From: an uncultured Candidatus Saccharibacteria bacterium
Lineage (GTDB): Bacteria; Patescibacteriota; Minisyncoccia; Phycocordibacterales; SBAW01
Assembly (NCBI GenBank): GCA_964355655.1
Contig: CAYHDT010000001.1
Location: forward strand, 21,588-85,587
Reading direction: 5' to 3'
Length of the DNA: 64,000 nucleotides
This document shows positions 1-25,810 of this stretch, piece after piece (the first letter of the stretch is position 1; each line of letters opens with the position of its first letter). The notes beneath the pieces were generated by a model that was not told the origin of the DNA, ran no database searches, and saw only the letters and a list, made by a program, of their open reading frames with translations. The position numbers were made by a program, and so were the translations under genes.

Positions 1-705
1 GCCCTCAGTGGGCCACGAAAGCAGCAGTTCTGACAGCGGCATGCTGAAAATATTTTTTGCGTCCGCACCGTCCGCTCGGGCAGTGTAGCCGTTTGCGCCG
101 GAGGCCGTTTTAAGCAAGTATGCGGCGTTTGCTCCGTCAGGAGATATCGCAAAACTTGTAATGCCCGCGGGGAGAAACCGGATACGCACCGGGGAAGTGG
201 TCGTGGCATCCGCGGCGGGCAGGGCAAAGTGCACCGTTTTAACCGCGCCGACGTCAATATATTGCATTAAGACACCTCTTCCTTTTTCGCTCCACTGTAC
301 CCGCGCGATGCCGGGGATAGTGGTGTTAGAGATTGCTTTAGGCACCGCGCCCGGCGAGTCCAAAACAAGGTCGAACGCGTGCCCGTTTGTTGCCATCACA
401 AACCGGGCAATAGTCGATGTAGCCGGGCGGAAAATTTGTACGAATGTAGCGCCGGCGACGGGGCCGTCAGCTATTTTAAAAACCTTTTTGGAACTGAGAA
501 CGCCGTTTGCTGCCGACCCCGGACCGTTGGCATCCGGCAACACTGTTACCCCGGTAGTTGCGCGTATATTGCTTTGCCCGAACGGAGGCTGTTCCTGCGC
601 CGGCGCAAAATCGGGAGTATTGAAATAGGCGAGCCAAATAACAATCCCCGCCGCGACTATCCCGCCGCCGACTATTCCCGCTATTATTTTCCAGTTTGTG
701 TTCAT
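1..705 (-). CDS. Partial CDS; the gene runs off the window start, so its C-terminal part is missing. N-terminal TM anchor followed by PD40/TolB-like beta-propeller repeats (ISPDGAKAAYL-type). Not present in the supplied ORF track.
   Basis: Reverse-complement translation of 1..705 is open throughout (MNTNWKIIAGIVGGGIVAAGIVIWLAYFNTPDF...FAISPDGANAAYLLKTASGANGYTARADGADAKNIFSMPLSELLL). The ATG at 705-703 overlaps the TAA stop of the upstream pilin-like gene (TAATG). Confidence 0.55.
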   Translation of the reverse strand, partial: MNTNWKIIAGIVGGGIVAAGIVIWLAYFNTPDFAPAQEQPPFGQSNIRATTGVTVLPDANGPGSAANGVLSSKKVFKIADGPVAGATFVQIFRPATSTIARFVMATNGHAFDLVLDSPGAVPKAISNTTIPGIARVQWSEKGRGVLMQYIDVGAVKTVHFALPAADATTTSPVRIRFLPAGITSFAISPDGANAAYLLKTASGANGYTARADGADAKNIFSMPLSELLLSWPTEG

Positions 706-1694
706 TATTTTATGCAAAAGAAGGATGTTGCGCCTGAGCCGGCATCGACCGACTTAACAGAACCCGATAAGTTATCTTGGCAATTTTTCCAGAAATTTTC
801 TATCTGCTGCAATTTTTCAGGAGTTGAGCCGCCGGGTATGGTAAGACTAGGACCCGTAGCGCCCACCGGAGTTGGCGCCGCGTAAATGGCCGGGCCGGAA
901 TTATTTCCGGGTAACATAGTACGAAGTTCCTCGAGTGCGTTAAGGTTAAATTCCAAAAGTTTCGGATTTATAGTGTTGAGTATAAGCCAGCTTCCGGCCA
1001 AAAGCAGCAGTCCCCAGAGCGCGGCTTGGGCGCGGTGCTTCGCTTTTTCGATGTCGACCGCCGACTCAGATATCATATATCCGATGCCCGCGACCACTAT
1101 CATAACAACCGCAAAGAGTCCGCCGATGGTAATGAGCGCCCGGAAGATGGCGGAGACAAAAGCCGGAAAGTTGGTCCCTGTTTGGCCGCAATTGCCGCTC
1201 GGGTCTTGGCACGGCAGAGGTTCGAGCGGAACATAGTCGCACCTTCCATTTTGTTTACAAAAAGCGTTAGGATTTGACGTTTGTTGCGTCGGTGTTGATG
1301 GGGTGGCGGGCGGAGCCGTAAGTTGTTGTACGGAGGGACCACTTCCTGTAGAACCAGCAGTGCTGCAATTACTGAGATATTGACTCACAGCAGGCCCGTC
1401 GGCTCCCAAGGGATCATTAACTGTTAGTGGAGCGAGTGTTGTTCCGGGACAAGTGTAGGTAGCAGGAGTAGAGCCAACAGGAACTGAGCAGCTACCCCAT
1501 GTGAACCAGCCAGATGCGTTCCAATTTCCGCCTCGAACAGTGCAGGCAGTTTGATTATCTGCCAACGCAACTATTGGAACCAAGAGGAGTCCGGAAAATA
1601 ATAGTGAAACGAGGAGTTTTTTCATCCCGTTAGAAACCCAGCCTGCACGCAGGTTGGCAAAAATTTTCAATTTTTGGTTTCTAACGGGATTCAT
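705..1694 (-). CDS. Secreted Cys-containing protein with a C-proximal TM segment. Pilin-like, T4SS-associated hypothetical.
   Basis: Signal peptide MKKLLVSLLFSGLLLVPIVALA, Cys-rich ectodomain, TM AIFRALITIGGLFAVVMIVVAGIGYMI. ATGA overlap with the upstream gene. Sits in the VirB4 cluster. Confidence 0.5.
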   Translation of the reverse strand: MNPVRNQKLKIFANLRAGWVSNGMKKLLVSLLFSGLLLVPIVALADNQTACTVRGGNWNASGWFTWGSCSVPVGSTPATYTCPGTTLAPLTVNDPLGADGPAVSQYLSNCSTAGSTGSGPSVQQLTAPPATPSTPTQQTSNPNAFCKQNGRCDYVPLEPLPCQDPSGNCGQTGTNFPAFVSAIFRALITIGGLFAVVMIVVAGIGYMISESAVDIEKAKHRAQAALWGLLLLAGSWLILNTINPKLLEFNLNALEELRTMLPGNNSGPAIYAAPTPVGATGPSLTIPGGSTPEKLQQIENFWKNCQDNLSGSVKSVDAGSGATSFFCIK

Positions 1695-3355
1695 AGGCCG
1701 ATGAAGTTAAACAATGAGTTGCTTTGCTCTGCGCCGAATACAAGTTGGAGCGATGTTTGCGCGGATTGTACGAGCTGGTTGGGGTTGTTGTTCTGCATCG
1801 AGACCCCTATATCGGCGCTCCCGCTGCCCGATCCTGTCTGCCGCAGTGTCAATATCCCCCGGGCGCTATCGGGGCCGGTCGTCTCAGTGCCGCTGAGCGT
1901 CCACACAAACGGAATAAGCCCGGATTTTGCCGTCGCCGTCGAAAAATAAAAGGCTTCCGCTTTGATGGTTATCTCTTTAGCGGCAAGCGATATAGCCGCG
2001 GGCAGAGCCGCCTCGTACAAAATGCCCCGCAGAGCATCGTACTGGTAGAGCAGGATAAAGGGCGCCGTCGCGGGGAGAAATAGTTCGGCATGGCCGACTT
2101 TATTGACACCATAATAAACATCGACGGCAACATCTTCTCCGGGCTGCAACTGATCGCCTGTGCGGGTAAAGATATTGCGTCCAAGGCCCGACACCTCGGG
2201 GACAGGATCGCCGCGATATATCCATTGATAAGACAACGCACTGTGGGCAACACGCGCTGAGCCTGAGTACACCGTGGGAAGCGCCACTACTTTGTAGTTA
2301 GAGCCCGCGCTGTAAAGGGCTTTCCCTTGGTAGAGCAGCGGGACGGTAGTGTCCGCTTCCCAAATAAGGTTTACGCGCGAAGGGTTAAAGGTAAAAGTCC
2401 TGGTAAAGACTCCCTGGCTTGAGTCTATTGTCGCGCGCACGGTCGTTTTTTCGCCCAATGCTCCGGTGACAAAAGTGTAAGAGCGCTCCCCAATGCCTTC
2501 TTTGACCACCTTGCCGTCCTTGCTCCAGGTAATGTTGGCGCTGCCGAGGAAGGAACCAACCCCTTGTATTTCGATCGCGACGTTTTCGCGCGCGCCCGGA
2601 GCCTCGGGCGCCACGATATATTGCACCGGCGCCGGGACGGTTTGCGCATGTACTTGCTTTGCCGGCAGGCAGGCCTGGATTCCGAACATCAGCAACAACG
2701 CCAATGCGGCGCCTCTTGCCGCGGGGCGGATATCATTAAAGCGACCGGCCAGGAGCGGCGCGCGTGAACGCTCTTTAGTTTGGATTTCTTTTTCCAACGC
2801 GACGGCGGGGGCAAAGCGGCGCTGTGCGGAGACTCCGGCAATATGTTTCAGCCCCCCCGGCCCTTTCCCGCGCGCGGTTACGAACGAAAGCGCTTGGCCG
2901 AACGTCCCCGCCGGAGCACTTTCCTCTTTTTGCTTTTCCCGGATGCACTTCCATACCATGTTGGTCCATATCGGGAGAAAGCCGAAGAAAGGCATTATCT
3001 CGCCGAGCATTCTTGGAATGATAACGCGCGGGTAGAACATGCCGTTCATGGCGAGCATCATAATAATGACGGCGCCGATGGTAATGCTGAGCGCCGTATC
3101 AACCGCGGCCCCCAGCGGTATGGCAAAGGCGCTCATGCCGGCGCCTATCAAAGCTCCTCCAATCGCGCATTTTGCGCCGGCAACAAGAGCGGCTATAGTG
3201 CCGGTCGTAGCGTTATAGCAATATGTTGCGCCGAGCGCGGCTCCCGAAAGACCTCCGCCTACCGGTGTTGCAAATTGAAGCGCGATAAAAGCCATGCCGA
3301 TAAAGAACTGGATGAAGTCGAGTATGGCCGCGGGGATAAGGTAGAAGTACCGCAT
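1691..3355 (-). CDS. Polytopic membrane protein with a large extracytoplasmic C-terminal domain (T4SS cluster member).
   Basis: Start reassigned to MRYFYLIPAAILDF (ATG at 3355) with a GGAGG RBS, 1 nt after the VirB4 stop. Three to four N-terminal TM helices are followed by an internal signal-peptide-like segment (ALALLLMFGIQACLPAKQVHAQ) and then about 320 aa of soluble domain. Confidence 0.55.
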   Translation of the reverse strand: MRYFYLIPAAILDFIQFFIGMAFIALQFATPVGGGLSGAALGATYCYNATTGTIAALVAGAKCAIGGALIGAGMSAFAIPLGAAVDTALSITIGAVIIMMLAMNGMFYPRVIIPRMLGEIMPFFGFLPIWTNMVWKCIREKQKEESAPAGTFGQALSFVTARGKGPGGLKHIAGVSAQRRFAPAVALEKEIQTKERSRAPLLAGRFNDIRPAARGAALALLLMFGIQACLPAKQVHAQTVPAPVQYIVAPEAPGARENVAIEIQGVGSFLGSANITWSKDGKVVKEGIGERSYTFVTGALGEKTTVRATIDSSQGVFTRTFTFNPSRVNLIWEADTTVPLLYQGKALYSAGSNYKVVALPTVYSGSARVAHSALSYQWIYRGDPVPEVSGLGRNIFTRTGDQLQPGEDVAVDVYYGVNKVGHAELFLPATAPFILLYQYDALRGILYEAALPAAISLAAKEITIKAEAFYFSTATAKSGLIPFVWTLSGTETTGPDSARGILTLRQTGSGSGSADIGVSMQNNNPNQLVQSAQTSLQLVFGAEQSNSLFNFIGL

Positions 3356-3356
3356 A

Positions 3357-5165
3357 TTATTGGGCCGCCTCCGCCTTTTTTTGGCGCAGGGCAAGGACTT
3401 GGGACGGGTCGGAAGTGATTATTTGGTCTTCGGTGTAGGAGGCTATTACTTTTATGGCAACATGCTTAAGGCCTGCGAAGAAGATTCCCTCCCCCACATC
3501 GGACTCAAGGAGCAAAAACTTCTCTTCGTCCGATAAGTTAAAAGTTTTCTGCAGATTGTCTATGGTAGTCGGCGACTGTTTAAGGAGTATCTGGATACTG
3601 GAGTTGGTAATCATCGGCAATCCGTACGGTGACTTCAAAAAGTCATCTACGTCTTGCGTGATGGTGGCAAGTCCTAAGTAGTATTTGCGGCCGCGCTTGG
3701 CCATCGAGTACAGGAAGCTCGCGGTGTCGTCCGACTTCATCATCCACCACGCCTCATCGATGACGAGTAGGCGTTTTTTAAGATTTTTGCGCACCGCGTT
3801 CCAGATGTAGTGCGTAATAAGGTACATTGCCACCGGCTTCAGGTCGTCTTCCATGTCGCGGACGGAAAAGACGACAAATTTTTTGTTTATATCGACGTTG
3901 GTCGGTTGGTTGATAAAGCCCGACCATGTGCCCTTGGTGTACTTGCTGAGGCGCTGCACCAGGGACTCCGAGCCCTGCAAGCCCGCGAGCACCAGCTCGA
4001 AGTCGGAAAGGAGCGGCGGCTCCACCTCGGCAAAGTTGCTGTCGATGGTAATGTCTTTAAGCGCGTATGTTTCGGTAATGGCGCGGTCAATAATGGCATC
4101 TTCTTCGGGTGTGAGCCCCCCGAGCATAATGCGGAACATTCCTACCAGCGCCACGATATTGGAGCGCAGAATATCGGCCGGCGACTCGTCTTCGCGCGGG
4201 ACAGCCAAGTCAAACGGGTTGATATGATTTTCCGAGTTGAGAGAAATGTTGAAGTATCGCCCGCCGACCGTTTGCGCCAAAAACTCGTACTCGCGCTCCG
4301 GGTCGATGACGATAACCTCGGTATCAAACATCAATGTGCGCAAGATTTCCAGCTTGGTGGCGTATGACTTGCCGGAACCGGACTTGGCAAAGATGACGGA
4401 GTTATAGTTCTCGAGACTGAAGCGGTCAAACAGCACCAGAGAAGCGTTGTGTCGGTTGACGCCGTAGAGTATGCCTTTGTCTGAAGTAAGGTCAAAAGAC
4501 ACGAACGGGAAGATGCTTGAAAGCGGGCTTGAGTTGAGTTTGGAGTTAACCTTCAACTCGTCGTGGCCGAGCGGGAGCACAGACTTAAAGCCCTGCTCCT
4601 GTTGGAAGAGCGCGGGTTTGACGTATACGAGGCGCGACTCCAGCATGGACTTTATTTCGCTCTCGGCTTTGTCCAACTCTTCGACCGAGGCGCCGTAGAT
4701 AGTAATGTAGACGCCGACGTCAAAAAGCTTTTCCTGCGCCTGCTGGAGCTGGTCGCGCAATGACTCCAGGTCTTGGTAGGCGGTGTCGAGTATCGGGTCG
4801 CGCACGAGGCCCTTCTCCTCCCGGGACATTATCTGGCTCTGCACCTCGGCCACCTTTTTTTGGAACTTTTTAAGTATCTCGGCGGAGTCTATCGGGTGGA
4901 TAAAGATAGAAATATCGAGCACGCGGTCGAGGTTGATGATGGGAGAGAACCACGAGTCGGTCAGGACTCTCGGGTAGGACATCACAAAAAACGTGCGCGC
5001 TATCTTGTCGCCGAGGTTTATCTCGCGGGGAGTTATTTTAAGCGCCGACGGGGCGATGACGTCCTGCAGCTCGAGTACCCCCTCTTTATATATTTGTTCG
5101 GGGAGTATAGACGCCATCGGCGCTAAGGTCTCTTTTTTTGGTTTTAGAAAATCTAAGAGTGCCAT
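3357..5165 (-). CDS. virB4: VirB4/TrbE/CagE-family type IV secretion ATPase.
   Basis: Walker A FAKSGSGKSY, Walker B LLVIDEAWWMM, 602 aa, typical VirB4 C-terminal ATPase architecture. Confidence 0.9.
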   Translation of the reverse strand: MALLDFLKPKKETLAPMASILPEQIYKEGVLELQDVIAPSALKITPREINLGDKIARTFFVMSYPRVLTDSWFSPIINLDRVLDISIFIHPIDSAEILKKFQKKVAEVQSQIMSREEKGLVRDPILDTAYQDLESLRDQLQQAQEKLFDVGVYITIYGASVEELDKAESEIKSMLESRLVYVKPALFQQEQGFKSVLPLGHDELKVNSKLNSSPLSSIFPFVSFDLTSDKGILYGVNRHNASLVLFDRFSLENYNSVIFAKSGSGKSYATKLEILRTLMFDTEVIVIDPEREYEFLAQTVGGRYFNISLNSENHINPFDLAVPREDESPADILRSNIVALVGMFRIMLGGLTPEEDAIIDRAITETYALKDITIDSNFAEVEPPLLSDFELVLAGLQGSESLVQRLSKYTKGTWSGFINQPTNVDINKKFVVFSVRDMEDDLKPVAMYLITHYIWNAVRKNLKKRLLVIDEAWWMMKSDDTASFLYSMAKRGRKYYLGLATITQDVDDFLKSPYGLPMITNSSIQILLKQSPTTIDNLQKTFNLSDEEKFLLLESDVGEGIFFAGLKHVAIKVIASYTEDQIITSDPSQVLALRQKKAEAAQ

Positions 5166-5271
5166 ATATATAGTTTAAGCTCCAAATCTCAAGCTCCAAA
5201 TCTCAAACAAGCTCCAATGTTTAAACTTTAGAAATTTAGGATTTTTCATTTTGTTTGTAATTTGAGGTTTG
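5166..5271. repeat. Intergenic AT-rich inverted-repeat element between virB4 and the upstream gene.
   Basis: AAGCTCCAAATCTCAAACAAGCTCC paired with its imperfect reverse complement AAGCTCCAAATAACAAACCTCAAATTA. There are also direct AAGCTCCAA(A)T repeats. Confidence 0.6.
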
Positions 5272-5931
5272 TTATTTGGAGCTTAGTTGTTCTACCTGCA
5301 GCGGCTTCTCCAGCTCGCCGGGGTTAAACAATTTGTAGAACAGCTCTATCACTTCTTCGGTGCCGAGCTTGACCACGCGCACCCCCGTGCGCACGAGCCC
5401 CTGCTCTATAACACTGACGCGCTGTTCGAGCTGAGTACGGTACTGCTCAAATTGCTCGTCATTTAAAGCGCCGGCGCCCTTGCCACTGCCGGGCAGCAGC
5501 GAGCCGAACATTCCTCCGCTGCGGTTAGCCAGCGCCGGGTCGTACGGCACGACAATAAAAAAGTTTTTTGTCATGATATTGGCGCGTTCGGTAAAATCTT
5601 TAATAAACGCCATGTACTCGCGTATCTGTATCTTCATCAACTCGTCGAGCTCCTTGGAGTATCGGTCCTGCAGGAGCGCGATGTAGGGGCGGATGTCGAG
5701 GTCGCGGCTTTGGATAAAAAATTCCACGGTAAACTCCAGTGAGTTAAGGAAGTTTTGGAACTGCCCGATGATGGCCTGCTGTTCGTCCTGGGACTTCAGC
5801 GCCAAGTTGATGCTCGAGGCCATTAGCAATACGCGCAACGAGCCGTCTTTAAGTATGATAACGCCGTCGCGCACTTCTTTAATAGGCACGAACTCCTGCG
5901 TCGCTTTAGATTTAATTTTTTGCTGGGGCAT
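5272..5931 (-). CDS. Hypothetical T4SS-associated protein, possibly a split VirB4 N-terminal domain.
   Basis: 219 aa soluble protein encoded between the PrgI/VirB3-like gene and virB4. The gene order VirB3-like, this ORF, VirB4 is an inference from synteny. Confidence 0.55.
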   Translation of the reverse strand: MPQQKIKSKATQEFVPIKEVRDGVIILKDGSLRVLLMASSINLALKSQDEQQAIIGQFQNFLNSLEFTVEFFIQSRDLDIRPYIALLQDRYSKELDELMKIQIREYMAFIKDFTERANIMTKNFFIVVPYDPALANRSGGMFGSLLPGSGKGAGALNDEQFEQYRTQLEQRVSVIEQGLVRTGVRVVKLGTEEVIELFYKLFNPGELEKPLQVEQLSSK

Positions 5932-6015
5932 AAAATTAACAAGTACAATACATACAACCAGAACAACAAGTACGATATTTTTTTATTGTATTTATTGTTT
6001 TCATTGTACTCGTTG
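5932..6015. repeat. Intergenic AT-rich inverted-repeat element. Paralog of 6466..6563.
   Basis: ACAACCAGAACAACAAGTACGATAT ... GTACTCGTTGTT, shared with the next spacer. Confidence 0.6.
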
Positions 6016-6465
6016 TTATATCTCGAATCCGCTGCGCTCGGCCGCAGTGACGCCCATTTGTGTACGGTCTTTTATGTTGAGCGACCAGGACAGGTCGCGG
6101 AGCTTGCTTTCGGACAGCTTTGGCACCGGCAGGTTTGATGGTTTTGCGGCCGGTACCGCCTTGCCTGCGGCGGGCACCCCTTCTTTATGGACTTTCCACA
6201 AGTAGAGTTTGCTCCCGAAAAAGTAGCCGGTCGCGTGCTCGACCGCGTGTATGAGCGGGCGGCCGTTTATCTCAAAAAAAGCGAGTCCGGCCGAAAAGGC
6301 CAGGACCGGGATGCCGAGGAGCACCGTTAGATACAGCGGCAGGAGCGTAAACATCAGCAGGCACAGGCCTCCCCCGCCGGCCAGCCAGATAAACTGCTTG
6401 AGCGTCAGCGGCCCGAAGATTTTATCCTCCACCTCGATAAATTGAGGAACCTGATACTGAGCCAT
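6016..6465 (-). CDS. PrgI/VirB3-like small membrane protein.
   Basis: N-terminus MAQYQVPQFIEVEDKIFGPLTLKQFIWL followed by two TM helices, located upstream of VirB4, as is typical of Gram-positive-type T4SS. Confidence 0.6.
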   Translation of the reverse strand: MAQYQVPQFIEVEDKIFGPLTLKQFIWLAGGGGLCLLMFTLLPLYLTVLLGIPVLAFSAGLAFFEINGRPLIHAVEHATGYFFGSKLYLWKVHKEGVPAAGKAVPAAKPSNLPVPKLSESKLRDLSWSLNIKDRTQMGVTAAERSGFEI

Positions 6466-6563
6466 CGCTATTAAGTATACAACCAGTACGACAAGTACGA
6501 TAAATACAATATAGGACAGCCTGAACTTCTTTGTACCTGTTGTTTATTGTACTTGTTGTTCTG
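6466..6563. repeat. Intergenic AT-rich inverted-repeat element. Paralog of 5932..6015.
   Basis: ACAACCAGTACGACAAGTACGATAAAT ... ATTGTACTTGTTGT. Confidence 0.6.
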
Positions 6564-7196
6564 TTACTCTGCTGGTTCGCGGTACGGGTCTGCGGTGTAA
6601 GGTTTTGGCGCAATTGGCGCAGCCGGAGAAGGGTTTGTTATTTGTGCCGGCGCCGTGCTGACAGTCTTTTGGGTCAGTATCATATCCGCAGGGTGGGGTG
6701 TGATGATTTTGGGGGCAGGAACCATAGGTTTTGGCGGTAAAGGCGCAGGGACAGGCGGCAATTTAGGTTGTGCCGGAGGAACTATCGGAGGTACAGGTGT
6801 GGAAATTTTGACGGACGCAGGGGCGATCGCCGGTCTGGTCACTTGAGCCGGGCTTGGCACAACTTTCTGTTTCTGGTAAGTTTTTTTCATCACCTCGCGT
6901 ATTTTTATAAACAAAAGATCATTTAAATCTCGAGCTATTGCATCCGCCTTGGTTGAATCGATACCCATGGTTTCTGCCAATACTGCTTGGAAGTCAGCGG
7001 TGTCGGTAAAACCAAGCATAACTGCGCTTGTTTCGTCCTCGAGCACCCCCGTTTGATCTAAATGGAGTTGGTATTTTTGAGCTATTTGTCGGATGGTCAT
7101 GAGCATCTCCGAGCTATATAACAGATATTTTATTTCCGGCGGCAAGGAATCATAGCGGGCTTTTGCTTCTTGAGGTGTGTAAGTTTTTTTTGTCAT
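6564..7196 (-). CDS. Hypothetical protein with a Pro-rich C-terminal half.
   Basis: 210 aa. N-terminal globular region, then a PxxP-rich tail (PVPPIVPPAQPKLPPVPAPLPPKPMVPAP). Confidence 0.55.
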   Translation of the reverse strand: MTKKTYTPQEAKARYDSLPPEIKYLLYSSEMLMTIRQIAQKYQLHLDQTGVLEDETSAVMLGFTDTADFQAVLAETMGIDSTKADAIARDLNDLLFIKIREVMKKTYQKQKVVPSPAQVTRPAIAPASVKISTPVPPIVPPAQPKLPPVPAPLPPKPMVPAPKIITPHPADMILTQKTVSTAPAQITNPSPAAPIAPKPYTADPYREPAE

Positions 7197-7202
7197 ACTT
7201 AC

Positions 7203-9395
7203 TTATACTTTTGGACTAATAATCTCTGCTTTATTTGTTTTTTCGATTTTCTTTTCAAGCTCTTTCACATGAGTGAGTCCATCATTTACTGTTTGTCTGG
7301 TTGCAGACAAAGTCGCCATGGTGGACGTGTCTCGGGCAAGTCGTGCGTCCTCAAATTGTTTGGTGACTTCTTTCAGTTTTGTTCCGAGTCCATCCTTTAG
7401 GTCTTTAATATTGGCATCCTTTATTGTAATGCCTGCCGCTAGCGTAGAGGTAAGAGTTGGAATTCCTCCCAGTTTTGTATTGATGTCTCGCAAAAGTTCA
7501 ATTTCTTTTTGCGCTTGGCGTACCATAGCGTGAGGAGAGTGGTTTTCATAATTGGCGTGCGCTTCATCTTTTTGTTGCTCATTCATTTTTTCGAGATCGC
7601 TCATTATCTTGCTCTGGCTTTCGGTAAAGATATGAGATAGGGTTTTTATGTGGTCGGCATCCAAGGTTCCCATTTGACGTTTATCCAGCGCTTGTAAACG
7701 CCCAAGGTCTGTTGCGTCAATACCTTTTTCAGCTTTATCGCCTGCGGCGATATTCCTTTCAATAATAGGCTTTATTTTTGAAGATAACTCACGATTCTCG
7801 ACGTCTCGTAGGTTGTTGCCCATCTCTTTGTTGCGGGTATCAAGGAACTCTTTTCGCACTTTGTAAGACGAAGCAACGGTTCCCAAAGACGTTTCAGTCA
7901 TGGGTTTAAGCACATTTTTGTTGAGCCGGTATCCTACCGTGCCCAGAGCTTTGCCCCATAGAGTTGAGCGATCGTTTGCCCATCTGCTGCCGGCTACACC
8001 CTTGCTGGCCGCATTTGCAAGTCGGCCACCCGTCTGACGGTATGCAGCGCCGGCAGCCCAGCCAGGGCCCCATTTGGCAGCAGATTTGCCGGCATTAAAT
8101 ACTCCACCACTGACAGTAGAGGCGATACTGCTTCCCTCTTTGACCACCCAGTCCGAAACCTTAAGCGCCACGTACATAAGCGCGATGATGAACCCCATGC
8201 GGATAAACACCGCCGCTATCGTACCCATCGAGGCTATTTCAGAGCCTCCGGCTGTGGCATTCCCCGCAGTGTTGGCGATGGCGTTCATAAGGCTGGTGCT
8301 GGCGCCGCCGGTGGTTCCTCCGGAGAGTATATCTCCCGAAAACCGGGTGAGAATAAGGAACATAAAGAGGAATATCGCCGGGTAGGCCGAAAATTCGATT
8401 AGCTTCCTCAACCATTGATGAAAAAAGTGCGCGGTCTGTGGCATCGTGCGTGCCACAAAAGCCAACGGCGAGGCTATAAGCAAAAACCACAGTCCCACGA
8501 TACGGAGCAAAAATTTGATTCCCACCTGTACAAAAATGAAGAAGAGCATCCACAACATGACCGCAACCGACAGATAAATGACGGTAAAGGTCCCCAGCGC
8601 TGCCCATGCTCCGCTGGAGAAGACAGATTGGTTTCCGCCTATTTGGTCGAACATTTGCTTGCTAAGCAACACCTGCGGGCCTACGGCCCCCATGATAGAG
8701 GTGCTTAGGTCTTTGACGCCGTTTATCTGCACTATTTTCCCGTCCGTCCCCGTCCCGGCGGGTATCGCATTATAAAATTGGAGAGCCAGGATGTTGCCGG
8801 TGTCTATCGCCACCCGGGTAAAAAAGAAGCTAAAGTTGACCAGGAGCGCGACAAGGACCACGACCGCAAGCGTTTTTATTGTCCCCGCGGTTTCCGCCTC
8901 TAGCATGACCATTACGGCGATGTAGATAAGGATAAAAATGAACGTCATGTTGGCGATATCGCGCACGGTCTCCCACCCTTTTGACAGGAAGTCCAGCGCG
9001 TAGGCGGTGCTGTTGAGCGACAGTTGTATGACGATGCTGAAAAAGTAGGCACCAATGTAGGCGACTTTGGTGGCCAGCATGGGCCCGACGTAGTACATAA
9101 GCACCGTAAGGCATTGCGTAATGCCGTTGCACTCAATTTGGGTAGAAGGTTCTTTGAAAGAGTTTTTAATAGCCTCTCCGGCTATATAACCAGTCGCCGA
9201 CCCGAGTAGTGGTACTGCATGAGCTTTTGGCGCACCAATAGGTGCCATGCTCGCTAAAAGCATCGCGAGCACAATACCGGGGATTATTTTTTTACTTAAA
9301 CGCATTGCATTGTTGGAGCTCGTCGGCGGTTTGTTGGTTGCGCGAGGCAAGCGCGCTTTGGAGCGTTGTCCGGTCTTGTGTCGCGTTGGTAACAT
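7203..9395 (-). CDS. VirB6/TrbL-like polytopic membrane protein with a long C-terminal coiled-coil/charged domain.
   Basis: At least 6 TM helices over about 400 aa, then a Lys/Glu-rich helical tail. An alternative start at 9305 (MRLSKKIIPGIV) is possible. Confidence 0.6.
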   Translation of the reverse strand: MLPTRHKTGQRSKARLPRATNKPPTSSNNAMRLSKKIIPGIVLAMLLASMAPIGAPKAHAVPLLGSATGYIAGEAIKNSFKEPSTQIECNGITQCLTVLMYYVGPMLATKVAYIGAYFFSIVIQLSLNSTAYALDFLSKGWETVRDIANMTFIFILIYIAVMVMLEAETAGTIKTLAVVVLVALLVNFSFFFTRVAIDTGNILALQFYNAIPAGTGTDGKIVQINGVKDLSTSIMGAVGPQVLLSKQMFDQIGGNQSVFSSGAWAALGTFTVIYLSVAVMLWMLFFIFVQVGIKFLLRIVGLWFLLIASPLAFVARTMPQTAHFFHQWLRKLIEFSAYPAIFLFMFLILTRFSGDILSGGTTGGASTSLMNAIANTAGNATAGGSEIASMGTIAAVFIRMGFIIALMYVALKVSDWVVKEGSSIASTVSGGVFNAGKSAAKWGPGWAAGAAYRQTGGRLANAASKGVAGSRWANDRSTLWGKALGTVGYRLNKNVLKPMTETSLGTVASSYKVRKEFLDTRNKEMGNNLRDVENRELSSKIKPIIERNIAAGDKAEKGIDATDLGRLQALDKRQMGTLDADHIKTLSHIFTESQSKIMSDLEKMNEQQKDEAHANYENHSPHAMVRQAQKEIELLRDINTKLGGIPTLTSTLAAGITIKDANIKDLKDGLGTKLKEVTKQFEDARLARDTSTMATLSATRQTVNDGLTHVKELEKKIEKTNKAEIISPKV

Positions 9396-11277
9396 CCGCT
9401 TCGGTAATAATAGTCCCCGAGGCGAGCGCGCTCTTGTAGGCGGCGGTCACCGCCGCGACATCCGCCGCCGAGGCCACGCTTAAAGCTTTTGTTTGCAGGT
9501 CTTGCAGGACTGCAATGCCCGTGTTGGCGCGCGTGATATTGGCGTTATACGCGTCTATCTTCGGGTCGTACTGGTGGAGCGCAAACACCGCGTTAAAGGC
9601 GTGCGTCTGCGCTATTTTTTGTTTGTCCTCGCTTAAGCTCGGGCTCGACGAAGCCGCTTCCCAGCAGTTGGCCAGCGACTGTAGCTGCGACTGTGCGCTT
9701 TGGATGTCCGCGATAGACCCCTGCTGTGTCGAGCCGTATTGCTGGGCTATTTGCACCTTGCCTTGCATGTCGGTCAAAAGAGCCTGCGCGTCGGCCTGCG
9801 CCTGCTGCTGCGCCGGGGTCAAAAAGTTGGACGCGTAGCCGCTCTGGCCGCTGAGTTCGGAAAGTCCGCCCTGCAAGGTCCTAGTCATAAGCTGGGTAAT
9901 AAGCGCGCTGATGATTTCGTCAAAGCTTTTGGCCAAGTTGAGCGAGTCTTGGCTCACGCCGAGCGTCTTGTTGAGCGACTCAGCAATGGTCGAGCCCGGG
10001 GTTGTCACAACGGTATTGCAGGTGCGATACTGGCCCCCTTCTATGGCGGTTGTCTTTTGGCCCGGTCTTGTACCGCCGGCCGGCGGCCCGCTGGTAACCG
10101 TGCAGTTGACCTCCTTGGTCGAAGAGATAAATCCTCTGCCCAGAATATAATCCTGCTGTCTCTGGCCTACCGCTTGGTTTTGCGCGTTTGTAAGCCCTAC
10201 CTGCGCGTAGGCAAATGCGCCGAAGGGGTTGTTGGTTGGTATGGAGGTAAATTGCAACAGGCCGCCCCACCCTCCTTGGGAGAAGTTGCCGTTCATAAAG
10301 CCGGTAACATTTTTTATGATGCTGGTAAGACTGCAGGACATCGCTCCTTGGCGCGCGTAGCTTTGCGCTATGGCGACGCGTATTTGCAACTGAAACGGCG
10401 AGCAGAGGAACGAGAGCGACGAGCCGCGGATAAACTCCCCCGCCGCTTGGTCGGCCACATTGGTAAAGAATTGCTGGTAGTTGCGCACGAACGACGGCTG
10501 GCCGTTAAAACCGGAGTTTATCCAGTTGACGACGCTCGCCGTTATTTGCTGTATGGCGGCGCGCGCAATGCCGCGCGCGATGCAGTTTAAAAAGTTGTCG
10601 CGCACCGTGTCGTTAGTTTTGAGCGTGTTGCCGTAGGCGGTTTGAGCGTTAAGCGCAATATCGTTGACCGGCACTGCCACGAGCGTGTTGCCAACGATCA
10701 GCGTTCCTCCTATGCCGCCGCCAAGAAGGGCGCTTCCAAATAAACTTGCCGTGCACGATACTGCGCCGGCAATACCGGCCCCCAAGAGCGCGGTGCCAAG
10801 CCCGAGCCCGCCGCCATTGTCGTCGCCGGGCCCTCCGCCGCCGGAGAATATATAAGGGGTGCCCGAAACATTGTTGTTGTTAAGGTCATTTATTGTTTTC
10901 GGGACAAAGTTTGTAGTCGGCCCTCCGCCTCCGCCGCCCGTCCCTCCGCCCCCTCCCCCGAGCCAGTCCACTCCGGGGATGTTTGCTATACCCCCGGCTC
11001 CGCCGGCTGCTCCACCCGCGCCGCCGGTACCACCCCCGCTGCTCTGTATCCCGGTTCCGACGTTAGTATTCGAGCCTGTCGGCAGGGTCCCGGAGGAGGA
11101 ATTGTTGGCGTTTGTACCGGTACCGGTCGAACTTCCCGGTTTTAGCTGCCCGGTGCCGAAGGTGCCGGTGGTTGCGGCGGGCTTTACCGTCGCGCGGAAG
11201 AAGAAAAACCAGACGAGCCCGACCACCAGCGCAAATAGTGCCGCGGCAATGATGATAATAAGAGTGCGCCTGTTCAT
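9292..11277 (-). CDS. Membrane-anchored protein with Gly/Thr/Asn-rich low-complexity regions (T4SS cluster).
   Basis: N-terminal TM IIIIAAALFALVVGLVWFFFF. Long GGGTGG/NNNN tracts, then a Cys-containing globular domain and a Q/A-rich C-terminus. ATGA overlap with the upstream gene. Confidence 0.6.
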   Translation of the reverse strand: MNRRTLIIIIAAALFALVVGLVWFFFFRATVKPAATTGTFGTGQLKPGSSTGTGTNANNSSSGTLPTGSNTNVGTGIQSSGGGTGGAGGAAGGAGGIANIPGVDWLGGGGGGTGGGGGGPTTNFVPKTINDLNNNNVSGTPYIFSGGGGPGDDNGGGLGLGTALLGAGIAGAVSCTASLFGSALLGGGIGGTLIVGNTLVAVPVNDIALNAQTAYGNTLKTNDTVRDNFLNCIARGIARAAIQQITASVVNWINSGFNGQPSFVRNYQQFFTNVADQAAGEFIRGSSLSFLCSPFQLQIRVAIAQSYARQGAMSCSLTSIIKNVTGFMNGNFSQGGWGGLLQFTSIPTNNPFGAFAYAQVGLTNAQNQAVGQRQQDYILGRGFISSTKEVNCTVTSGPPAGGTRPGQKTTAIEGGQYRTCNTVVTTPGSTIAESLNKTLGVSQDSLNLAKSFDEIISALITQLMTRTLQGGLSELSGQSGYASNFLTPAQQQAQADAQALLTDMQGKVQIAQQYGSTQQGSIADIQSAQSQLQSLANCWEAASSSPSLSEDKQKIAQTHAFNAVFALHQYDPKIDAYNANITRANTGIAVLQDLQTKALSVASAADVAAVTAAYKSALASGTIITEADVTNATQDRTTLQSALASRNQQTADELQQCNAFK

Positions 11278-12191
11278 TGTGGTGAGTATGAAGGAAGAAA
11301 AACGTCCCAGGCTGCTCCCGGCTCGTCTTTACTGAAAAGTATACCGCTCTTACGCAGTTGTTCGGCCAGCGTTGTCAACAAACGAGAGGCTTCGGTTCCG
11401 GAAGTTTGAAATAGCTGCAGGCCGGCAAGCCCCCGCATCGGGTCGTCTATAACAGTCTTCATTTCGCCCGCGGCAACCGACATTTTGGAAAGGTTATTAA
11501 GCAGCTGCAGATACAAAGGAGCAACGGTCGATGGAACCGGCATGCTTGCAAGGTCGTCGGCAAGCGCGGCATACGCCGCGCCTATGGCGGTAAGCGGGGC
11601 AAGCGCCGAAGCATCACCGTAATCGATCGCTTTTCCTATAGCCAGAAGAGCCTCGTCATTGTTGGCGCGCGGGTGGCCAAGAAAAGTTTTCATAACCCCG
11701 TTTCCCCACTCGTGCAGGCTGGTTGGTGTTTGGCTTATCATCGTGAGGTTGCTCGCCGTATATGCCGCCGACACGTTTTTCTCTACCTGCGCGGCGGCGT
11801 CGGCTATAAGCTTTTCTTGCGTCGGTAAATCACTCCCCAGTCCTTGCGCCCCCGCATCGCCGAGGTTAACAAACAGCGATCGGGCAATCGAGTTAGTGAC
11901 ATTGGAGCTTTGTGCCGCTGTAAGCATCGCCCGGACGGCCGTTTGGTCCGGCGCCGCGGGGAGCCCCGGCGCCTGCGCCTGTATTGCGTCTAGGGATGCC
12001 TGCCAATTTTCTGTTTGTGGAGCGCCGCTCGCGGTCAAAAGTACGGAGGTGGAGGCAGATTTGGGACTGGTCAGGTACTGCGCGCCGATAATAAGGCCCC
12101 CAGCAAGCGCTACCGATAAGACAATGCCTGAAAATCGCGAACTGGGGAGATAAGCACGAACGTCCATGCATCCAGTATATAATGGAAACAT
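11274..12191 (-). CDS. Hypothetical membrane-anchored protein (first gene of the minus-strand T4SS block).
   Basis: TM GIVLSVALAGGLIIGAQ near the N-terminus, then an Ala-rich soluble domain. An alternative start is possible at 12167. Confidence 0.5.
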   Translation of the reverse strand: MFPLYTGCMDVRAYLPSSRFSGIVLSVALAGGLIIGAQYLTSPKSASTSVLLTASGAPQTENWQASLDAIQAQAPGLPAAPDQTAVRAMLTAAQSSNVTNSIARSLFVNLGDAGAQGLGSDLPTQEKLIADAAAQVEKNVSAAYTASNLTMISQTPTSLHEWGNGVMKTFLGHPRANNDEALLAIGKAIDYGDASALAPLTAIGAAYAALADDLASMPVPSTVAPLYLQLLNNLSKMSVAAGEMKTVIDDPMRGLAGLQLFQTSGTEASRLLTTLAEQLRKSGILFSKDEPGAAWDVFLPSYSPQ

Positions 12192-12579
12192 GCTTCACTT
12201 CGCCCGTCTTTATACGATAGCTGCATTGCTGGTAGTTTTACTTATCCCGTCGCTCAGTTCGGCGAGCCTCGGCTCCAGTGTTACTCCCTGGCTCCCCGAC
12301 CCTTTTGGAGGTACTGTGATCTCTGTCCTCCCGTGTCTCACTGCCCCAGGCTTTTTTGCAGTCAACATGATAGAGCGCCTCTCCATACCGCCCTATTTTA
12401 CCTACAGCACTTACATACTGAGTCCACTTTCCCCGTTCCTCTCACATGTACCTCCACATCCAGGCCAGAACGTCATTGGTAAGTCTTTTGGTATGTACTC
12501 CTGTATTATCGACCTCAATCCGAAACATTACGTGGTCTGGTTTGAGCCGTTCTCAGTCTTTTATGGCAGCAGCCTCTAG
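12166..12579 (+). CDS. Possible small secreted protein, antisense to and flanking the T4SS block (speculative).
   Basis: ORF with a signal-peptide-like N-terminus (TIAALLVVLLIPSLSSASLG). No clear RBS. Lies in an AT-richer gap between minus-strand genes. Confidence 0.25.
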   Translation: MHPVYNGNMLHFARLYTIAALLVVLLIPSLSSASLGSSVTPWLPDPFGGTVISVLPCLTAPGFFAVNMIERLSIPPYFTYSTYILSPLSPFLSHVPPHPGQNVIGKSFGMYSCIIDLNPKHYVVWFEPFSVFYGSSL

Positions 12580-13346
12580 CCTTCGGCGAGTTTGAGCCAT
12601 TGCTCTAAAGGCACATCCTCCGCGCGCGCCTTGTCGTCTATTGCAGTCTTTTGCAAAACACTAGCATAGCCGGGGCCGAGGTTGTTCTTGAGAAATTTTC
12701 TTTTTTGAGCGAAACCTTTCTTCACCGTTTCAAAAAATCTTTTCTCGTGCGCGGCGTTGGTAAAGTTTTTCCGTGAAATATTTTCCACCGCGAGTATGGC
12801 GGAGTCGACTTTCGGCGGCGGGGAAAACGCGCCCGCCGGCACGGTCTTAATATATTTTGGCGTACCGTATGCCTTAATCGAAAGCGAGAGTATCGATTCT
12901 TTTTTTGAGCGCGCGATACGCTCCCCCACCTCTTTTTGGATTAAGAACACCAGCGTCGTAGGCTGATTGGTTCCGGATAGAAATTTTTTAAACAGCGCGC
13001 CCGTAATGTAGTACGGAATATTGCCGACTACTTTGTAGCCCCGACGCAAGGTCGGGACCCCGACCAAGGCGTCGGGGCTGCTGAGGTCAAACTCCAGCGC
13101 GTCGCCTTCTATCACTTCGAAATCTTTACCTGCAAACTTATCCCGCAAAAAAGAAATCAATCTTGAATCTTTTTCTATCGCGACGACCTTTGCGCCGCGC
13201 TCTAAAATGACGGAAGTCAGACTTCCGTCACCGGGGCCTATTTCCAATACCGTCTCCCCTTCCTTTATATGTGCGGCGTCGACAACCGCCGCAAGGTAAG
13301 CGTCCGAGTTCAAAAAATGCTGCCCGAGGGATTTTTTCTTAAACAT
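12576..13346 (-). CDS. rsmA: 16S rRNA (adenine1518/1519-N6)-dimethyltransferase.
   Basis: LGQHFL motif, SAM-binding VLEIGPGDGSLT, about 256 aa. Confidence 0.9.
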   Translation of the reverse strand: MFKKKSLGQHFLNSDAYLAAVVDAAHIKEGETVLEIGPGDGSLTSVILERGAKVVAIEKDSRLISFLRDKFAGKDFEVIEGDALEFDLSSPDALVGVPTLRRGYKVVGNIPYYITGALFKKFLSGTNQPTTLVFLIQKEVGERIARSKKESILSLSIKAYGTPKYIKTVPAGAFSPPPKVDSAILAVENISRKNFTNAAHEKRFFETVKKGFAQKRKFLKNNLGPGYASVLQKTAIDDKARAEDVPLEQWLKLAEG

Positions 13347-14214
13347 GAGTTAAGGTTTTAAGCGGAAACTGGCTGCTGTAGAGCTCTCCAAATTCCAATG
13401 GGATCACAGCGAGCAGAATATTTTTTTGAGCTAATAATGCGCGAGTTTTTTCAACATAGGCCAAAGGAACTTCAACATGAGTAAAACAATGCAGTGGAAT
13501 CCGCTTCGCCACGCGCACCTCAAATTGCCGCAAGAATGGGACAACCCCGTCTCCGGATACCGCATCTTTAGTGAGTCCTATTAAAACAGGGTGATTCCCC
13601 TCGATGTCAGAACGCAAATCATACGCCCGCCACCAAGGGATTACTTTGTAGGCGTCCATGTTACAGATGGCATTCGCCCAAATTCGCGCACGTTTAAGAA
13701 AGTTTCTATTAAGCACCGTCTGTTTTAGAAACTCACGCCCGCCTGGCCCCGGCTGTACGAGTAATGCTCGGGTAGCAAGAAAAAAGAAGAATCCCATCCA
13801 AAACCGAGTTCCTCCAAACACATAGTCGAGCCACACTCCTTTGTAAAGATGTATATGCGCGTAGAGGCGCGCGTGCATGCGCGATGGGGCAACCGACACG
13901 GTTTTTTTGAAATGGCTGTTGATTTGAACCCATAAGTCCTGATGACCGTTGAGGCCGCGGTTCGAAAGAATAGATTCGAGCACGTTGACGATATCGATGT
14001 GTTCCACAGCGCCATACCGGGTGTCATTAGGATGACGGTAATGGTAATGCCCGGTGCCGTGCCAATATACAGCCTGTTCGTAACATTTTTCTAGGAGCGG
14101 TAGATACTGGCTGTAGTCGCGCCAGCGCTCGTTTCGCACCCCCTCTGCCTGTTGGCGGTATTTGAGGAGGTGTTTTTCGCTATGATTTAAAAAAAGTCGA
14201 TACAACATCGTCAA
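13339..14214 (-). CDS. Hypothetical protein.
   Basis: 291 aa ORF, co-directional and overlapping with its neighbours (rsmA and the helicase). No motif recognised. Confidence 0.55.
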   Translation of the reverse strand: MTMLYRLFLNHSEKHLLKYRQQAEGVRNERWRDYSQYLPLLEKCYEQAVYWHGTGHYHYRHPNDTRYGAVEHIDIVNVLESILSNRGLNGHQDLWVQINSHFKKTVSVAPSRMHARLYAHIHLYKGVWLDYVFGGTRFWMGFFFFLATRALLVQPGPGGREFLKQTVLNRNFLKRARIWANAICNMDAYKVIPWWRAYDLRSDIEGNHPVLIGLTKDAVSGDGVVPFLRQFEVRVAKRIPLHCFTHVEVPLAYVEKTRALLAQKNILLAVIPLEFGELYSSQFPLKTLTHV

Positions 14215-16115
14215 TCCAAGTATATCGTCTTACCCAAGCGCTCGGGGCTTTCGGCCAGCAGGAGCTCTCTGGGCAGTTCGCTTAAAAACAGCGAGTTTTT
14301 CCGGATGTCGGTGTTGCCGAATACGGTGCGCATCATCGCGTAAGAGAGGAATACTTTCTTTTGCGCCCTCGTCAGCGCCACGTACATGAGCCGCCGCTCT
14401 TCTTCGAGACTGTCTTTGGTATCGTCTTCCCTTTCGTAGGGGAAGAGTCCTTCCTCCAGCCCGATAATAAACACGTAGGGGAACTCCAGTCCTTTGGCCG
14501 CGTGCACGGTCATAAGCCGCACTTGGTTTTTAGTTTCCTTCAGCTCGTCCTGGTCGGAGGCGAGTGCCGCCGACTCCAGAAATTTTTCCAGCCCTTCGGG
14601 CGGCGGGTACGCGTCGTACCGCGCCGCAAGCGACACCAGCTCCGCGAGGTTCTCCAGTCTTTCCGCGCCCTCGAGCTTATCTTCTTTGAGTGTTTTTTCT
14701 ATACCGCTCTCCGCTATTGTCTCGCGTATAAGCTTAGACGGCTGCACCGCCGCCGCGCCGGCGCCGATTTTTGCCAGCAGCCGGCGCATGCCCGCTACCC
14801 GCTCGCGCGTTTTGCCGGTAAGCGCGTGTTCTTGGCCGGACAGGATTTTTAGTTTAGTTACTTTGCCGATGCCCGGCAGGGTGTCTATGACGCGGCCGAT
14901 ATCGGCGGCATTTTCGCTCACGGCAGCACGGACAAATGACAGTACATCTTTGACTTCTTTGCGCTCAAAAAATCGCGTGCCCAGTACTTGGTACGGCACT
15001 CGCGCGTCAAGAAGCTTTTCCTCAACCGCGCGCGATTGGAAGTTGGCGCGGTACAGCACGGCAAAGTCTTGCGGTTTGCGTCCGGAGTCCAACAGCTCTT
15101 GGATTTTACGCGCGACAAACAGCGCCTCGTCGCCCCCGTCGCCGGCGATGTACAGTGACAGTGCTTCGCCGTCGGGGTTGCGCGTAAAAAGATTTTTATC
15201 CGGCCGGTTGGTATTGTTGCCTATCAGTTGGTTTGCCGCCGCGAGTATCGCTTTGGTTGAACGGTAGTTTTCTTCTAGCGTCACCACCGCGCCTCCGTAC
15301 TTTTTTTCAAACAAAAGCATGTTGGTAATCTGTGCTCCCCGCCATCCGTAGATAGTCTGGTCAATATCGCCGACCACGCAGATATTTTTTTCCGGCCCTA
15401 TGAGCAACTCCGTCAGGCGCGCTTGGATAACATTGGTATCCTGATACTCATCTACGTGTATGTAATTCCAGCGCTGATGGCAGCGTTCGCGGACTTCCGG
15501 ATACTTTTCCAACAGCTGTACGGCCCGCAGAAGCAGGTCGTCAAAGTCGAGCGCACCGTCCTGGTGCAGCGCGGACTCATACTTTAACCATGCTTGCGCT
15601 ATTTGTTTGTCGCGCCAAGAGACGGCCGCTTCCGCGTACATGCCGGCGGTTATTCCCTCGCCTTTGTTGCGCGAGGCAACTCCAAGCGCCGCTCTTGGCT
15701 CAATTTCATCGCCACTAGTGCTCTGCAGCGCCTGTTTCATTGTCCGCAAAGAATCCGCGCGGTCGTATATCGCCGGGGTGCGCTTAAATCCAAGCAACGT
15801 AGCATTCTCCTTTATAAGGGTCAGCCCAAGCGAATGAAAGGTCGAAATGAAAGGAGTATTTACAAGGCGAAACCTTGGAGAGTCCTGGTTTAAGGTTTCG
15901 CCTTGGATACGACTGCGCATCTCTCCGGCCGCTTTGTTGGTAAAAGTGATGGCGAGGATGCTCTCCGGCGCGGCGCCATGGCGGATAATATTGCGTATCC
16001 GTTCGGCAATGACCCTGGTTTTCCCCGCCCCGGCGCCCGCCAGTACCAACAAGGGGCCGGCTATTGACTCAACACAGGTTCGTTGTTGTGGGTTCAGTTG
16101 AGCAAGGCTGTCCAT
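14211..16115 (-). CDS. UvrD/PcrA/Rep-family ATP-dependent DNA helicase.
   Basis: Walker A GAGAGKT and superfamily-1 helicase motifs (e.g. TFHSLG). Confidence 0.9.
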   Translation of the reverse strand: MDSLAQLNPQQRTCVESIAGPLLVLAGAGAGKTRVIAERIRNIIRHGAAPESILAITFTNKAAGEMRSRIQGETLNQDSPRFRLVNTPFISTFHSLGLTLIKENATLLGFKRTPAIYDRADSLRTMKQALQSTSGDEIEPRAALGVASRNKGEGITAGMYAEAAVSWRDKQIAQAWLKYESALHQDGALDFDDLLLRAVQLLEKYPEVRERCHQRWNYIHVDEYQDTNVIQARLTELLIGPEKNICVVGDIDQTIYGWRGAQITNMLLFEKKYGGAVVTLEENYRSTKAILAAANQLIGNNTNRPDKNLFTRNPDGEALSLYIAGDGGDEALFVARKIQELLDSGRKPQDFAVLYRANFQSRAVEEKLLDARVPYQVLGTRFFERKEVKDVLSFVRAAVSENAADIGRVIDTLPGIGKVTKLKILSGQEHALTGKTRERVAGMRRLLAKIGAGAAAVQPSKLIRETIAESGIEKTLKEDKLEGAERLENLAELVSLAARYDAYPPPEGLEKFLESAALASDQDELKETKNQVRLMTVHAAKGLEFPYVFIIGLEEGLFPYEREDDTKDSLEEERRLMYVALTRAQKKVFLSYAMMRTVFGNTDIRKNSLFLSELPRELLLAESPERLGKTIYLD

Positions 16116-17410: not shown

Positions 17411-17456
17411 AAATCTCCTCACCAAGGCTTCATGGCGGACCCGGTAGAGTGGTCCC

Positions 17457-17915: not shown

Positions 17916-17977
17916 GGATTGCCGGAGGCGGAATTCATTAAACGTTCATGAAAGATTAAGTACAGTACTATATATCT

Positions 17978-21730: not shown

Positions 21731-21738
21731 GTAGATGT

Positions 21739-22797: not shown

Positions 22798-22836
22798 GAT
22801 GCCTCTTGTGCAGACGGAATAAAAGCACGCTGCTTA

Positions 22837-23088: not shown

Positions 23089-23102
23089 ATATTTTATTTT
23101 TC

Positions 23103-23768: not shown

Positions 23769-23780
23769 GCACCTTAGTTT

Positions 23781-24413: not shown

Positions 24414-24530
24414 ACTGTTTCTATTTCTATTATTAATTTTTACTAATTATTTCGACCTTTATTCAACTTCACAATCCCATACACCCTGTGTGATTTTCAT
24501 GAAGATTGATCCCCATATTTTTGTTGTGAA

Positions 24531-25808: not shown

Positions 25809-25810
25809 TA

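Follow-up and report, generated by a model that had tools for sequence, protein, structure and literature searches.

A VirB4-centred type IV secretion-like gene block beside the replication origin region of a Paceibacteria chromosome

Layout of the block and its conservation across Paceibacteria

We analysed a stretch of 64,000 nucleotides (nt) from an uncultured bacterium (contig CAYHDT010000001.1, positions 21,588 to 85,587), hereafter the window, whose left end carries a block of genes resembling a type IV secretion system (T4SS). According to the listing of open reading frames (ORFs), the block occupies positions 1-12191 as an unbroken minus-strand run of ten co-directional ORFs. One of them, encoding a protein of 554 amino acids (aa), is a fusion whose two parts are encoded by separate genes in most relatives, so that the block has eleven modules. 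In the order of transcription, the genes encode a 305-aa protein, a 661-aa protein, VirB6, a Pro-rich protein, PrgI, a TrsD-like protein, VirB4, the 554-aa fusion, a pilin and a 406-aa protein. The window contains an inner-membrane engine consisting of VirB4, TrsD, PrgI and an extended VirB6, together with a VirB2-like pilin and six co-transcribed envelope proteins that belong to no family. We hold with high confidence that this block represents, in Paceibacteria, the chromosomal T4SS that most Patescibacteria have, which is inherited vertically and derives from conjugation machinery of monoderms (MPF_FATA).

The conservation of the block was assessed with a one-genome-per-species scan of 80 Paceibacteria loci (L003-L082), which were picked by VirB4 similarity and compared for gene order in 79 cases. 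The order pcrA-ksgA-305-Cys domain-VirB6-Pro-PrgI-TrsD-VirB4-(small transmembrane (TM) module)-Ig-like-pilin-TolB-like was colinear in 78 of the 79 loci, where the Cys domain belongs to the 661-aa protein, the small TM and Ig-like modules to the 554-aa fusion, and the TolB-like member is the 406-aa protein. The position between pcrA-ksgA and the dnaA region was likewise kept in 78 of the 79 species-level loci, and PrgI was present in 77. Across the loci, VirB4 was 77-97% identical to the window copy, and its identity exceeded that of KsgA in every locus compared (47/47) and that of PcrA in every locus compared (36/36), with a mean gap of about 30 percentage points; the choice of loci by VirB4 similarity somewhat inflates the VirB4 identity relative to the other genes, but the contrast with the housekeeping genes is too large and consistent to be an artefact of this selection. 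Median identity was 79% for VirB4, 61% for TrsD, 49% for PrgI, 36% for the pilin and 26-31% for the other envelope proteins, so that conservation falls from the cytoplasmic to the surface parts. Judged from these sequence comparisons, VirB4 is under purifying selection, with a constraint stronger than that on the adjacent housekeeping genes. Because the order is colinear and the identities are graded in this way, we conclude that the block is vertically inherited, that its engine is strongly constrained and that its surface changes rapidly.

The genes are closely packed at six of their nine junctions, which are either overlaps or spacers of at most 6 nt. ATGA overlaps join the 305-aa to the 661-aa gene and the 554-aa to the pilin gene, a TAATG overlap joins the pilin gene to the 406-aa gene, and the 661-aa gene overlaps the VirB6 gene by 14 nt; the spacers measure 1 nt between the VirB4 and 554-aa genes and 6 nt between the VirB6 and Pro-rich genes. 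The other three junctions are loose, with 98 nt between the Pro-rich and PrgI genes, 84 nt between PrgI and TrsD, and 106 nt between TrsD and VirB4. The preliminary description of this DNA had counted eleven tightly coupled co-directional genes; the shared direction stands, as does the number eleven when modules are counted, while the ORFs number ten and three junctions are open by 84-106 nt. A contig from the Hainich groundwater metagenome (L001), 100% identical over 6221 bp, extends the block past the left edge of the window.

Two of the loose spacers have features of their own. The PrgI-TrsD spacer (5932..6015, minus strand) is predicted to form a hairpin with a minimum free energy of -22.9 kcal/mol (z -5.1), and a related hairpin spacer lies between the Pro-rich and PrgI genes (6466-6563, minus strand, z -2.3). 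Common to both is the motif TATCGTACTTGTYGT, which has five matches in the window against 0.12 expected, four of the five being inside these spacers. In most related species these two gene pairs abut, with median spacers of 8 nt (PrgI-TrsD) and 4.5 nt (Pro-rich-PrgI), and both hairpin spacers are therefore lineage-specific inserts. A promoter and terminator scan gave counts no higher than the shuffled expectation, and an Rfam scan of the window returned four tRNAs and nothing else.

VirB4, its detached N-terminal domain, and the membrane and pilin components

The VirB4 gene (3357..5165; this and all further block genes on the minus strand) encodes a 602-aa ATPase without the usual N-terminal domain. 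It carries a Walker A motif (GSGKS) and a Walker B motif (LLVIDEAW), and in Pfam it matches PF19044 (P-loop_TraG, 93 bits), AAA_10 and DUF87. Against NF045971, the model for VirB4-like conjugal transfer ATPases of the CD1110 family, it scored 395 bits with a cut-off of 325, although only profile positions 180-733 of 752 were covered. The identification of VirB4 offered by the preliminary description is hence secured above curated thresholds. More than 8000 homologues were found, of which the top 120 were 92-100% identical, and proteins named Kaiser-, Adler-, Nomurabacteria or Paceibacterota were 92-98% identical to the window copy. The nearest plasmid VirB4s, of the CD1110 family in Firmicutes and Actinobacteria, shared 29-37% identity. 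Since the protein is near-identical to many VirB4s of Patescibacteria and at most 37% identical to any plasmid VirB4, it very likely belongs in a monophyletic Patescibacteria clade.

Immediately upstream, the gene at 5272..5931 encodes a soluble TrsD/TraC-like protein of 219 aa. It matched positions 99-233 of the NCBIfam model VirB4_plasma (E 1e-10) and positions 2-117 of conju_CD1110, and it reached E 8.7e-9 and 35.5 bits with the TrsD model NF041427, under the cut-off of 200. PF26593 (TraC-like) was found on the identical gene in the Hainich contig, and the hidden Markov model (HMM) built from the family matched residues 20-169 of the unsplit 797-aa VirB4 encoded by the Clostridium botulinum plasmid pCDC3875. 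On these profile matches, the 219-aa protein is a detached VirB4 N-terminal domain, a TrsD/TraC-like component. Because it corresponds to the N-terminal part that is absent from the ATPase, the split of VirB4 into 219 and 602 aa, earlier raised as a possibility, is correct.

PrgI (6016..6465) is a VirB3-like membrane protein of 149 aa with two TM helices (TM-like segments 24-44 and 45-67), and its match to PF12666 reached 36.6 bits against a gathering score of 27, in agreement with the earlier assignment. The VirB6 gene (7203..9305) encodes a polytopic protein of 700 aa when read from Met31, in which a membrane domain of about 400 aa is followed by a coiled-coil and helical C-terminal domain of about 270 aa. 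The window copy itself gave no TrbL match in the Pfam scan. TrbL was matched by 18 of the 46 members of its family, and the best match of its predicted structure was TrwI/VirB6, while a search of the family profile against PDB sequences returned coiled-coil noise and nothing else. Family and structural model together indicate that the 700-aa protein is a VirB6 homologue near virB4, and the VirB6/TrbL-like label given before is retained on this basis.

The pilin gene (705..1694) encodes a VirB2-like T4SS pilin of 329 aa. Its signal/anchor sequence is followed by a variable region rich in Cys, Pro and Thr, then by a hairpin of two helices (residues 178-242) and, at the C-terminus, by a tail; its TM-like segments lie at residues 23-47, 176-215 and 224-242. 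The score with PF18895 (T4SS_pilin) was 27.1 bits, just above the gathering score of 26.6, which upholds the earlier pilin-like call. Among its 33 syntenic orthologues, 30 matched PF18895 and eight matched PF04956 (TrbC/VirB2). Between species, conservation is limited to the hairpin region of about 100 aa, and the family profile found no significant match among PDB sequences. The block holds one pilin gene, not an array.

Six envelope proteins without a family model

Six of the eleven modules match no Pfam or NCBIfam family, and their positions in the operon are fixed. This agrees with the earlier statement that half of the components lack a recognisable family, and the Gly-rich, Pro-rich and membrane-anchored character it ascribed to them is seen in the translations and TM predictions.

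The first gene of the block (11274..12191) encodes a bitopic membrane protein of 305 aa with a single TM-like segment (residues 17-41). Its homologues align from residue 9, and its start is probably at 12167. It is syntenic in 30 loci; searches of Pfam, NCBIfam and PDB returned nothing for it, and the Pfam scans of its homologues were empty.

The following gene (9292..11277) encodes an anchored protein of 661 aa, composed of an N-terminal TM helix, a Gly-rich linker, a Cys-containing domain (about residues 220-480) and a C-terminal helical bundle. The conserved part of the Cys domain spans residues 219-479 (window 9841-10623), and Cys, Trp and Gly columns are invariant in its alignment. A profile of this domain recovered 5184 cluster representatives (E <= 1e-3), of which 1916 reached E <= 1e-30, the named members being hypothetical proteins of Parcubacteria. 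Some members of the family also carry IPT/TIG, Ig-like, F5/8-C or PG_binding_1 domains. Neither the protein nor its Cys domain has a Pfam or NCBIfam model, and the profile search of PDB gave nothing significant. DUF4141 was considered for the protein and dropped as too thin, being matched by one of 28 homologues (E 1.3e-5). In the AlphaFold model, the Cys domain has a predicted local distance difference test score below 50 and confidence is confined to the C-terminal bundle; a Foldseek search with this model returned generic helical bundles, which favour neither a VirB5-like nor a hydrolase-like reading.

The soluble Pro-rich protein of 210 aa (6564..7196) has a conserved N-domain of about 105 aa, a Pro-rich tail and a C-terminal DPYREP motif (alignment A10). 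It is syntenic in 54 loci; no match was found in Pfam, NCBIfam or PDB, and the Pfam scans of its homologues were likewise empty. In one related species, the Pro-rich homologue and PrgI are fused in frame into a protein of 426 aa (L037:950-2230), with PrgI at residues 294-378. As the two genes are fused there, the arrangement hints that the Pro-rich protein and PrgI may act together.

The 554-aa fusion protein (1691..3355) was recognised as such from the two-gene arrangement of its relatives, most of which have a polytopic protein of 115-255 aa and a signal-anchored protein of about 340 aa as separate genes. Residues ~1-170 (nt ~2846-3355) form a small polytopic membrane module, whose alignment (A5) shows the motif GExIPxxxxLPxWT, and residues ~205-554 form a signal-anchored, beta-rich surface domain. 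The polytopic membrane protein of the preliminary description corresponds to the first of these parts, and its gene also encodes the beta-rich domain. No Pfam match was obtained for either part, nor for homologues of the small module scanned individually; seven of 30 homologues of the beta-rich domain match BiPBP_C weakly, and its profile found a weak match to the Ig-like Hoc in PDB (E 0.1) and nothing significant. The beta-rich domain is probably Ig-like. The same fusion occurs in L003 and L007. In a contig from a replicate sample (L002, 99.84% identical, with one gap), a frameshift splits the small module (L002:3443-5147), which reflects variation between strains or else a fault in the assembly.

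Only the first 235 codons of the last gene, which encodes the 406-aa anchored protein, lie in the window (1..705); the full gene is found on the Hainich contig (L001:5517-6737). The protein has a single TM-like segment (residues 5-29), an N-terminal membrane anchor, and syntenic homologues in 43 loci. No Pfam match was found for it or its homologues. Its family profile, searched against PDB, had TolB as 13 of the top 20 matches (E 0.008-0.18), and the protein may be called TolB/PD40-like weakly, at best. The earlier PD40-like label is consequently matched by the weak TolB hits and by no Pfam model.

Chromosomal setting, known systems and proposed role

The block adjoins the replication origin region. 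Past the left edge of the window, the Hainich contig carries jag (R3H), yidC, dnaA and dnaN, and on the other side of the block from dnaA lies ksgA (12576-13346), followed by an ORF of 291 aa without an assigned function (13339..14214) and pcrA/uvrD (14211-16115). The 291-aa ORF was found in none of the related loci and therefore does not belong to the conserved block. A plus-strand ORF of 137 aa with a signal/anchor sequence (12166-12579) lies divergent from the operon, between ksgA and the first gene of the block. Weak homologues occupy this place in L003, L008, L057 and L063 (tblastn E 2.6e-4 to 8e-3), and the ORF may be a real small gene.

This setting bears on whether the block is part of an ordinary integrative and conjugative element (ICE) or an integrated plasmid, with its relaxase and coupling protein outside the examined stretch. 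Such an origin would fit the membership of VirB4 in the CD1110 conjugative family, the likeness of the core gene order to that of a mobilisable Clostridium plasmid, and the presence of a gene for a Xer-like tyrosine recombinase at 41685-42605. The recombinase, however, stands 29 kb away among housekeeping genes. As the preliminary description had also stated, no relaxase, VirD4 or VirB11 domain was found in the window ORFs of at least 140 aa (64 kb), and a tblastn search with a CD1115 VirD4 matched neither the window nor any of the 80 loci. That description had named a relaxase or type IV coupling protein (T4CP) immediately outside the window as the sign of an ordinary ICE or plasmid; the 10 kb to the left hold no relaxase, T4CP or VirB11 and carry the jag-yidC-dnaA-dnaN genes instead. 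The order between dnaA/yidC and ksgA/pcrA is fixed in 78 of 79 species, the GC content of the block is even and unremarkable, and the accessory genes are more diverged than the housekeeping genes, which excludes a recent transfer. With no linked relaxase or T4CP, a fixed position among housekeeping genes and even GC, the ICE reading was rejected, and we consider it highly improbable.

The remaining ~52 kb of the window are housekeeping in character, with PNPase, ComM, a CCA enzyme, RNase Y, the four tRNAs, two-component systems and cell-wall enzymes. Positions 16292-26899 form a cell-envelope and signalling cluster, which includes a response regulator, a MASE1 hybrid kinase, an M23 peptidase with a PG-binding domain, a sortase (23103-23768) and surface proteins with PKD, ice-binding-like and FN3 domains. 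Four genes for TrmB-family transcription regulators are spread over the 64 kb (31917-32684, 45067-45840, 48802-49647 and 61552-62295). A LysM-M23 peptidase gene lies at 16292-17410, 4 kb from the block, and its product could possibly stand in for VirB1.

A chromosomal, relaxase-less T4SS of Patescibacteria is already known from papers of 2023-2025, and the window adds no new principle. Quinonero-Coronel et al. (2025) placed the VirB4 of Patescibacteria within MPF_FATA, accompanied by TrsD, PrgI, VirB6 and PF18895 pilins (PMC12102498). They described these systems as lacking a relaxase, with the T4CP usually distant and, in Paceibacteria, with dnaA, dnaN and ksgA nearby, and they reported an association with VirB1 for Paceibacteria (PMC12102498). 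Our block shares with this catalogue the VirB4 with adjacent TrsD, the PrgI/VirB3, the VirB6 and the PF18895 pilin, the lack of a relaxase or nearby T4CP, and the chromosomal position close to dnaA/dnaN and ksgA; there is no essential difference, and the block has no VirB1 homologue. Beyond the catalogue, it adds six no-family proteins at fixed positions, one fused pair and the extended VirB6.

The experimentally studied counterpart is the T4SS of Southlakia epibionticum ML1 (SEML1_0006-0019; Wang et al. 2023, PMC10633639), a member of Saccharimonadia. Southlakia cannot grow as an epibiont without the cluster and its pilins (PMC10633639; PMC12857230), and no T4CP or relaxase is recognisable in it (PMC10633639). 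Both systems have a Gram-positive-like set of subunits and VirB2-like pilins, with no coupling protein or relaxase in the cluster. Southlakia has six divergent pilins in an array, whereas the window has one, and peptidase and lysozyme genes adjoin its virB4, whereas our block contains no hydrolase. The preliminary reading of a minimal, VirB4-centred and non-conjugative apparatus of Gram-positive or Candidate Phyla Radiation type matches both sets of studies (PMC12102498, PMC10633639).

Among conjugative relatives, the C. botulinum plasmid pCDC3875 (MPF_FATA, CTn2/CD1110 type) has a CD1110-family VirB4 with 33% identity to ours and the same core order, in which VirB6, PrgI and VirB4 precede a small protein and then a large surface protein. 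Its VirB4 is unsplit and its VirB6 has 260 aa, in contrast to the divided VirB4 and the 700-aa VirB6 of the window. The plasmid also encodes a VirD4 (CD1115), a MOBP relaxase and an SLT hydrolase and has no pilin, whereas the block has a VirB2-like pilin and none of the other three. HMMs of our no-family proteins found no counterpart among the pCDC3875 proteins. Compared with the VirB-type systems of R388 and Agrobacterium (MPF_T), the block proteins gave no Pfam or NCBIfam matches to the VirB7/VirB9/VirB10 outer-membrane core or to VirB11, and VirB5, VirB8 and VirD4 were not detected in the block.

Because no relaxase or T4CP was found, conjugation by the block is unlikely, and protein export, macromolecule import and pilus display are the remaining candidates. 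We propose that TrsD, VirB4 and PrgI would form a membrane-docked ATPase, in which VirB4 would drive the building of a channel based on VirB6 and of a pilus or conduit of VirB2 across the cell wall. VirB6 might serve as the channel or as a platform for pilus assembly, as in R388, and outside the cell the pilin would build a filament or conduit, which is not usual in monoderms. The wall-spanning, outer and host-facing parts could be supplied by the rapidly evolving anchored proteins (TolB-like, Ig-like, Cys-domain and bitopic). Such a machine would serve the epibiotic interaction with a host, by export of proteins or import of host macromolecules, and not the conjugal transfer of its own DNA.

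The preliminary description had proposed DNA uptake or host attachment, and both functions are speculative. A DNA-import machine like the ComB system of H. pylori or the archaeal Ced system, with host DNA as a source of nucleotides, would accord with the lack of a relaxase and T4CP and with weak NCBIfam matches to CedB and CedD, and the authors of the catalogue favour an import of DNA or of other macromolecules by these systems (PMC12102498). Yet the Ced scores (CedB 36 bits against a cut-off of 700, CedD 18 against 600) reflect the shared ATPase fold alone, and none of the block proteins was recognised as DNA-binding. In Southlakia, DNA uptake is mediated by comEC, and the cells can do without comEC but not without the T4SS (PMC12857230). 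We regard DNA import as rather unlikely.

An organelle confined to adhesion, like the T4CP-less Trw of Bartonella, would present a variable pilus together with adhesins so that the cell can attach to its host, and would transfer no substrate. The highly conserved engine beside a fast-evolving pilin and surface-exposed proteins (26-36% median identity) is in keeping with this, as are the long variable extracellular region of the pilin and the Bartonella Trw precedent (PMC12857230). Against it, type IV pili are already adhesive in Patescibacteria (PMC10633639), the pilin gene is single rather than arrayed, and it would be left unexplained why an extended VirB6 channel protein has been kept. A pilus without transfer is therefore also an improbable account of the block.

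Several points, besides the choice of loci by VirB4 similarity, weigh against our assignment of the block to the Patescibacteria T4SS. The TrsD-like protein and VirB6 of the window fall under curated HMM cut-offs and were assigned from family-level and structural evidence, and the block yielded no candidate for a VirB8-like or VirB1-like component. The search covered the window and 10 kb, and a VirD4-like gene may lie elsewhere in the genome; in most genomes, T4CP homologues are far from virB4 (PMC12102498). Essentiality is known from one Saccharibacterium only. On balance, the assignment to the chromosomal Patescibacteria T4SS is kept at the confidence given at the outset. A bolder proposal, which we put forward tentatively, is that the six no-family proteins are genuine lineage-specific machine parts that replace VirB8, VirB1, VirB5 and adhesins, and that they build a host-contacting, wall-spanning conduit unlike any solved T4SS, possibly working in the import direction.

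The T4SS of Patescibacteria is among the few machines tied to the obligate epibiotic life of a very large and mostly uncultured radiation, and no earlier T4SS had been reported as essential to the bacterium carrying it. The window provides a clean Paceibacteria example, in which a fixed set of unannotated envelope proteins accompanies the core and in which the fast evolution of the surface is as expected of host-contact structures. Its remaining value lies in these conserved accessory proteins without a family, which are natural structural targets.

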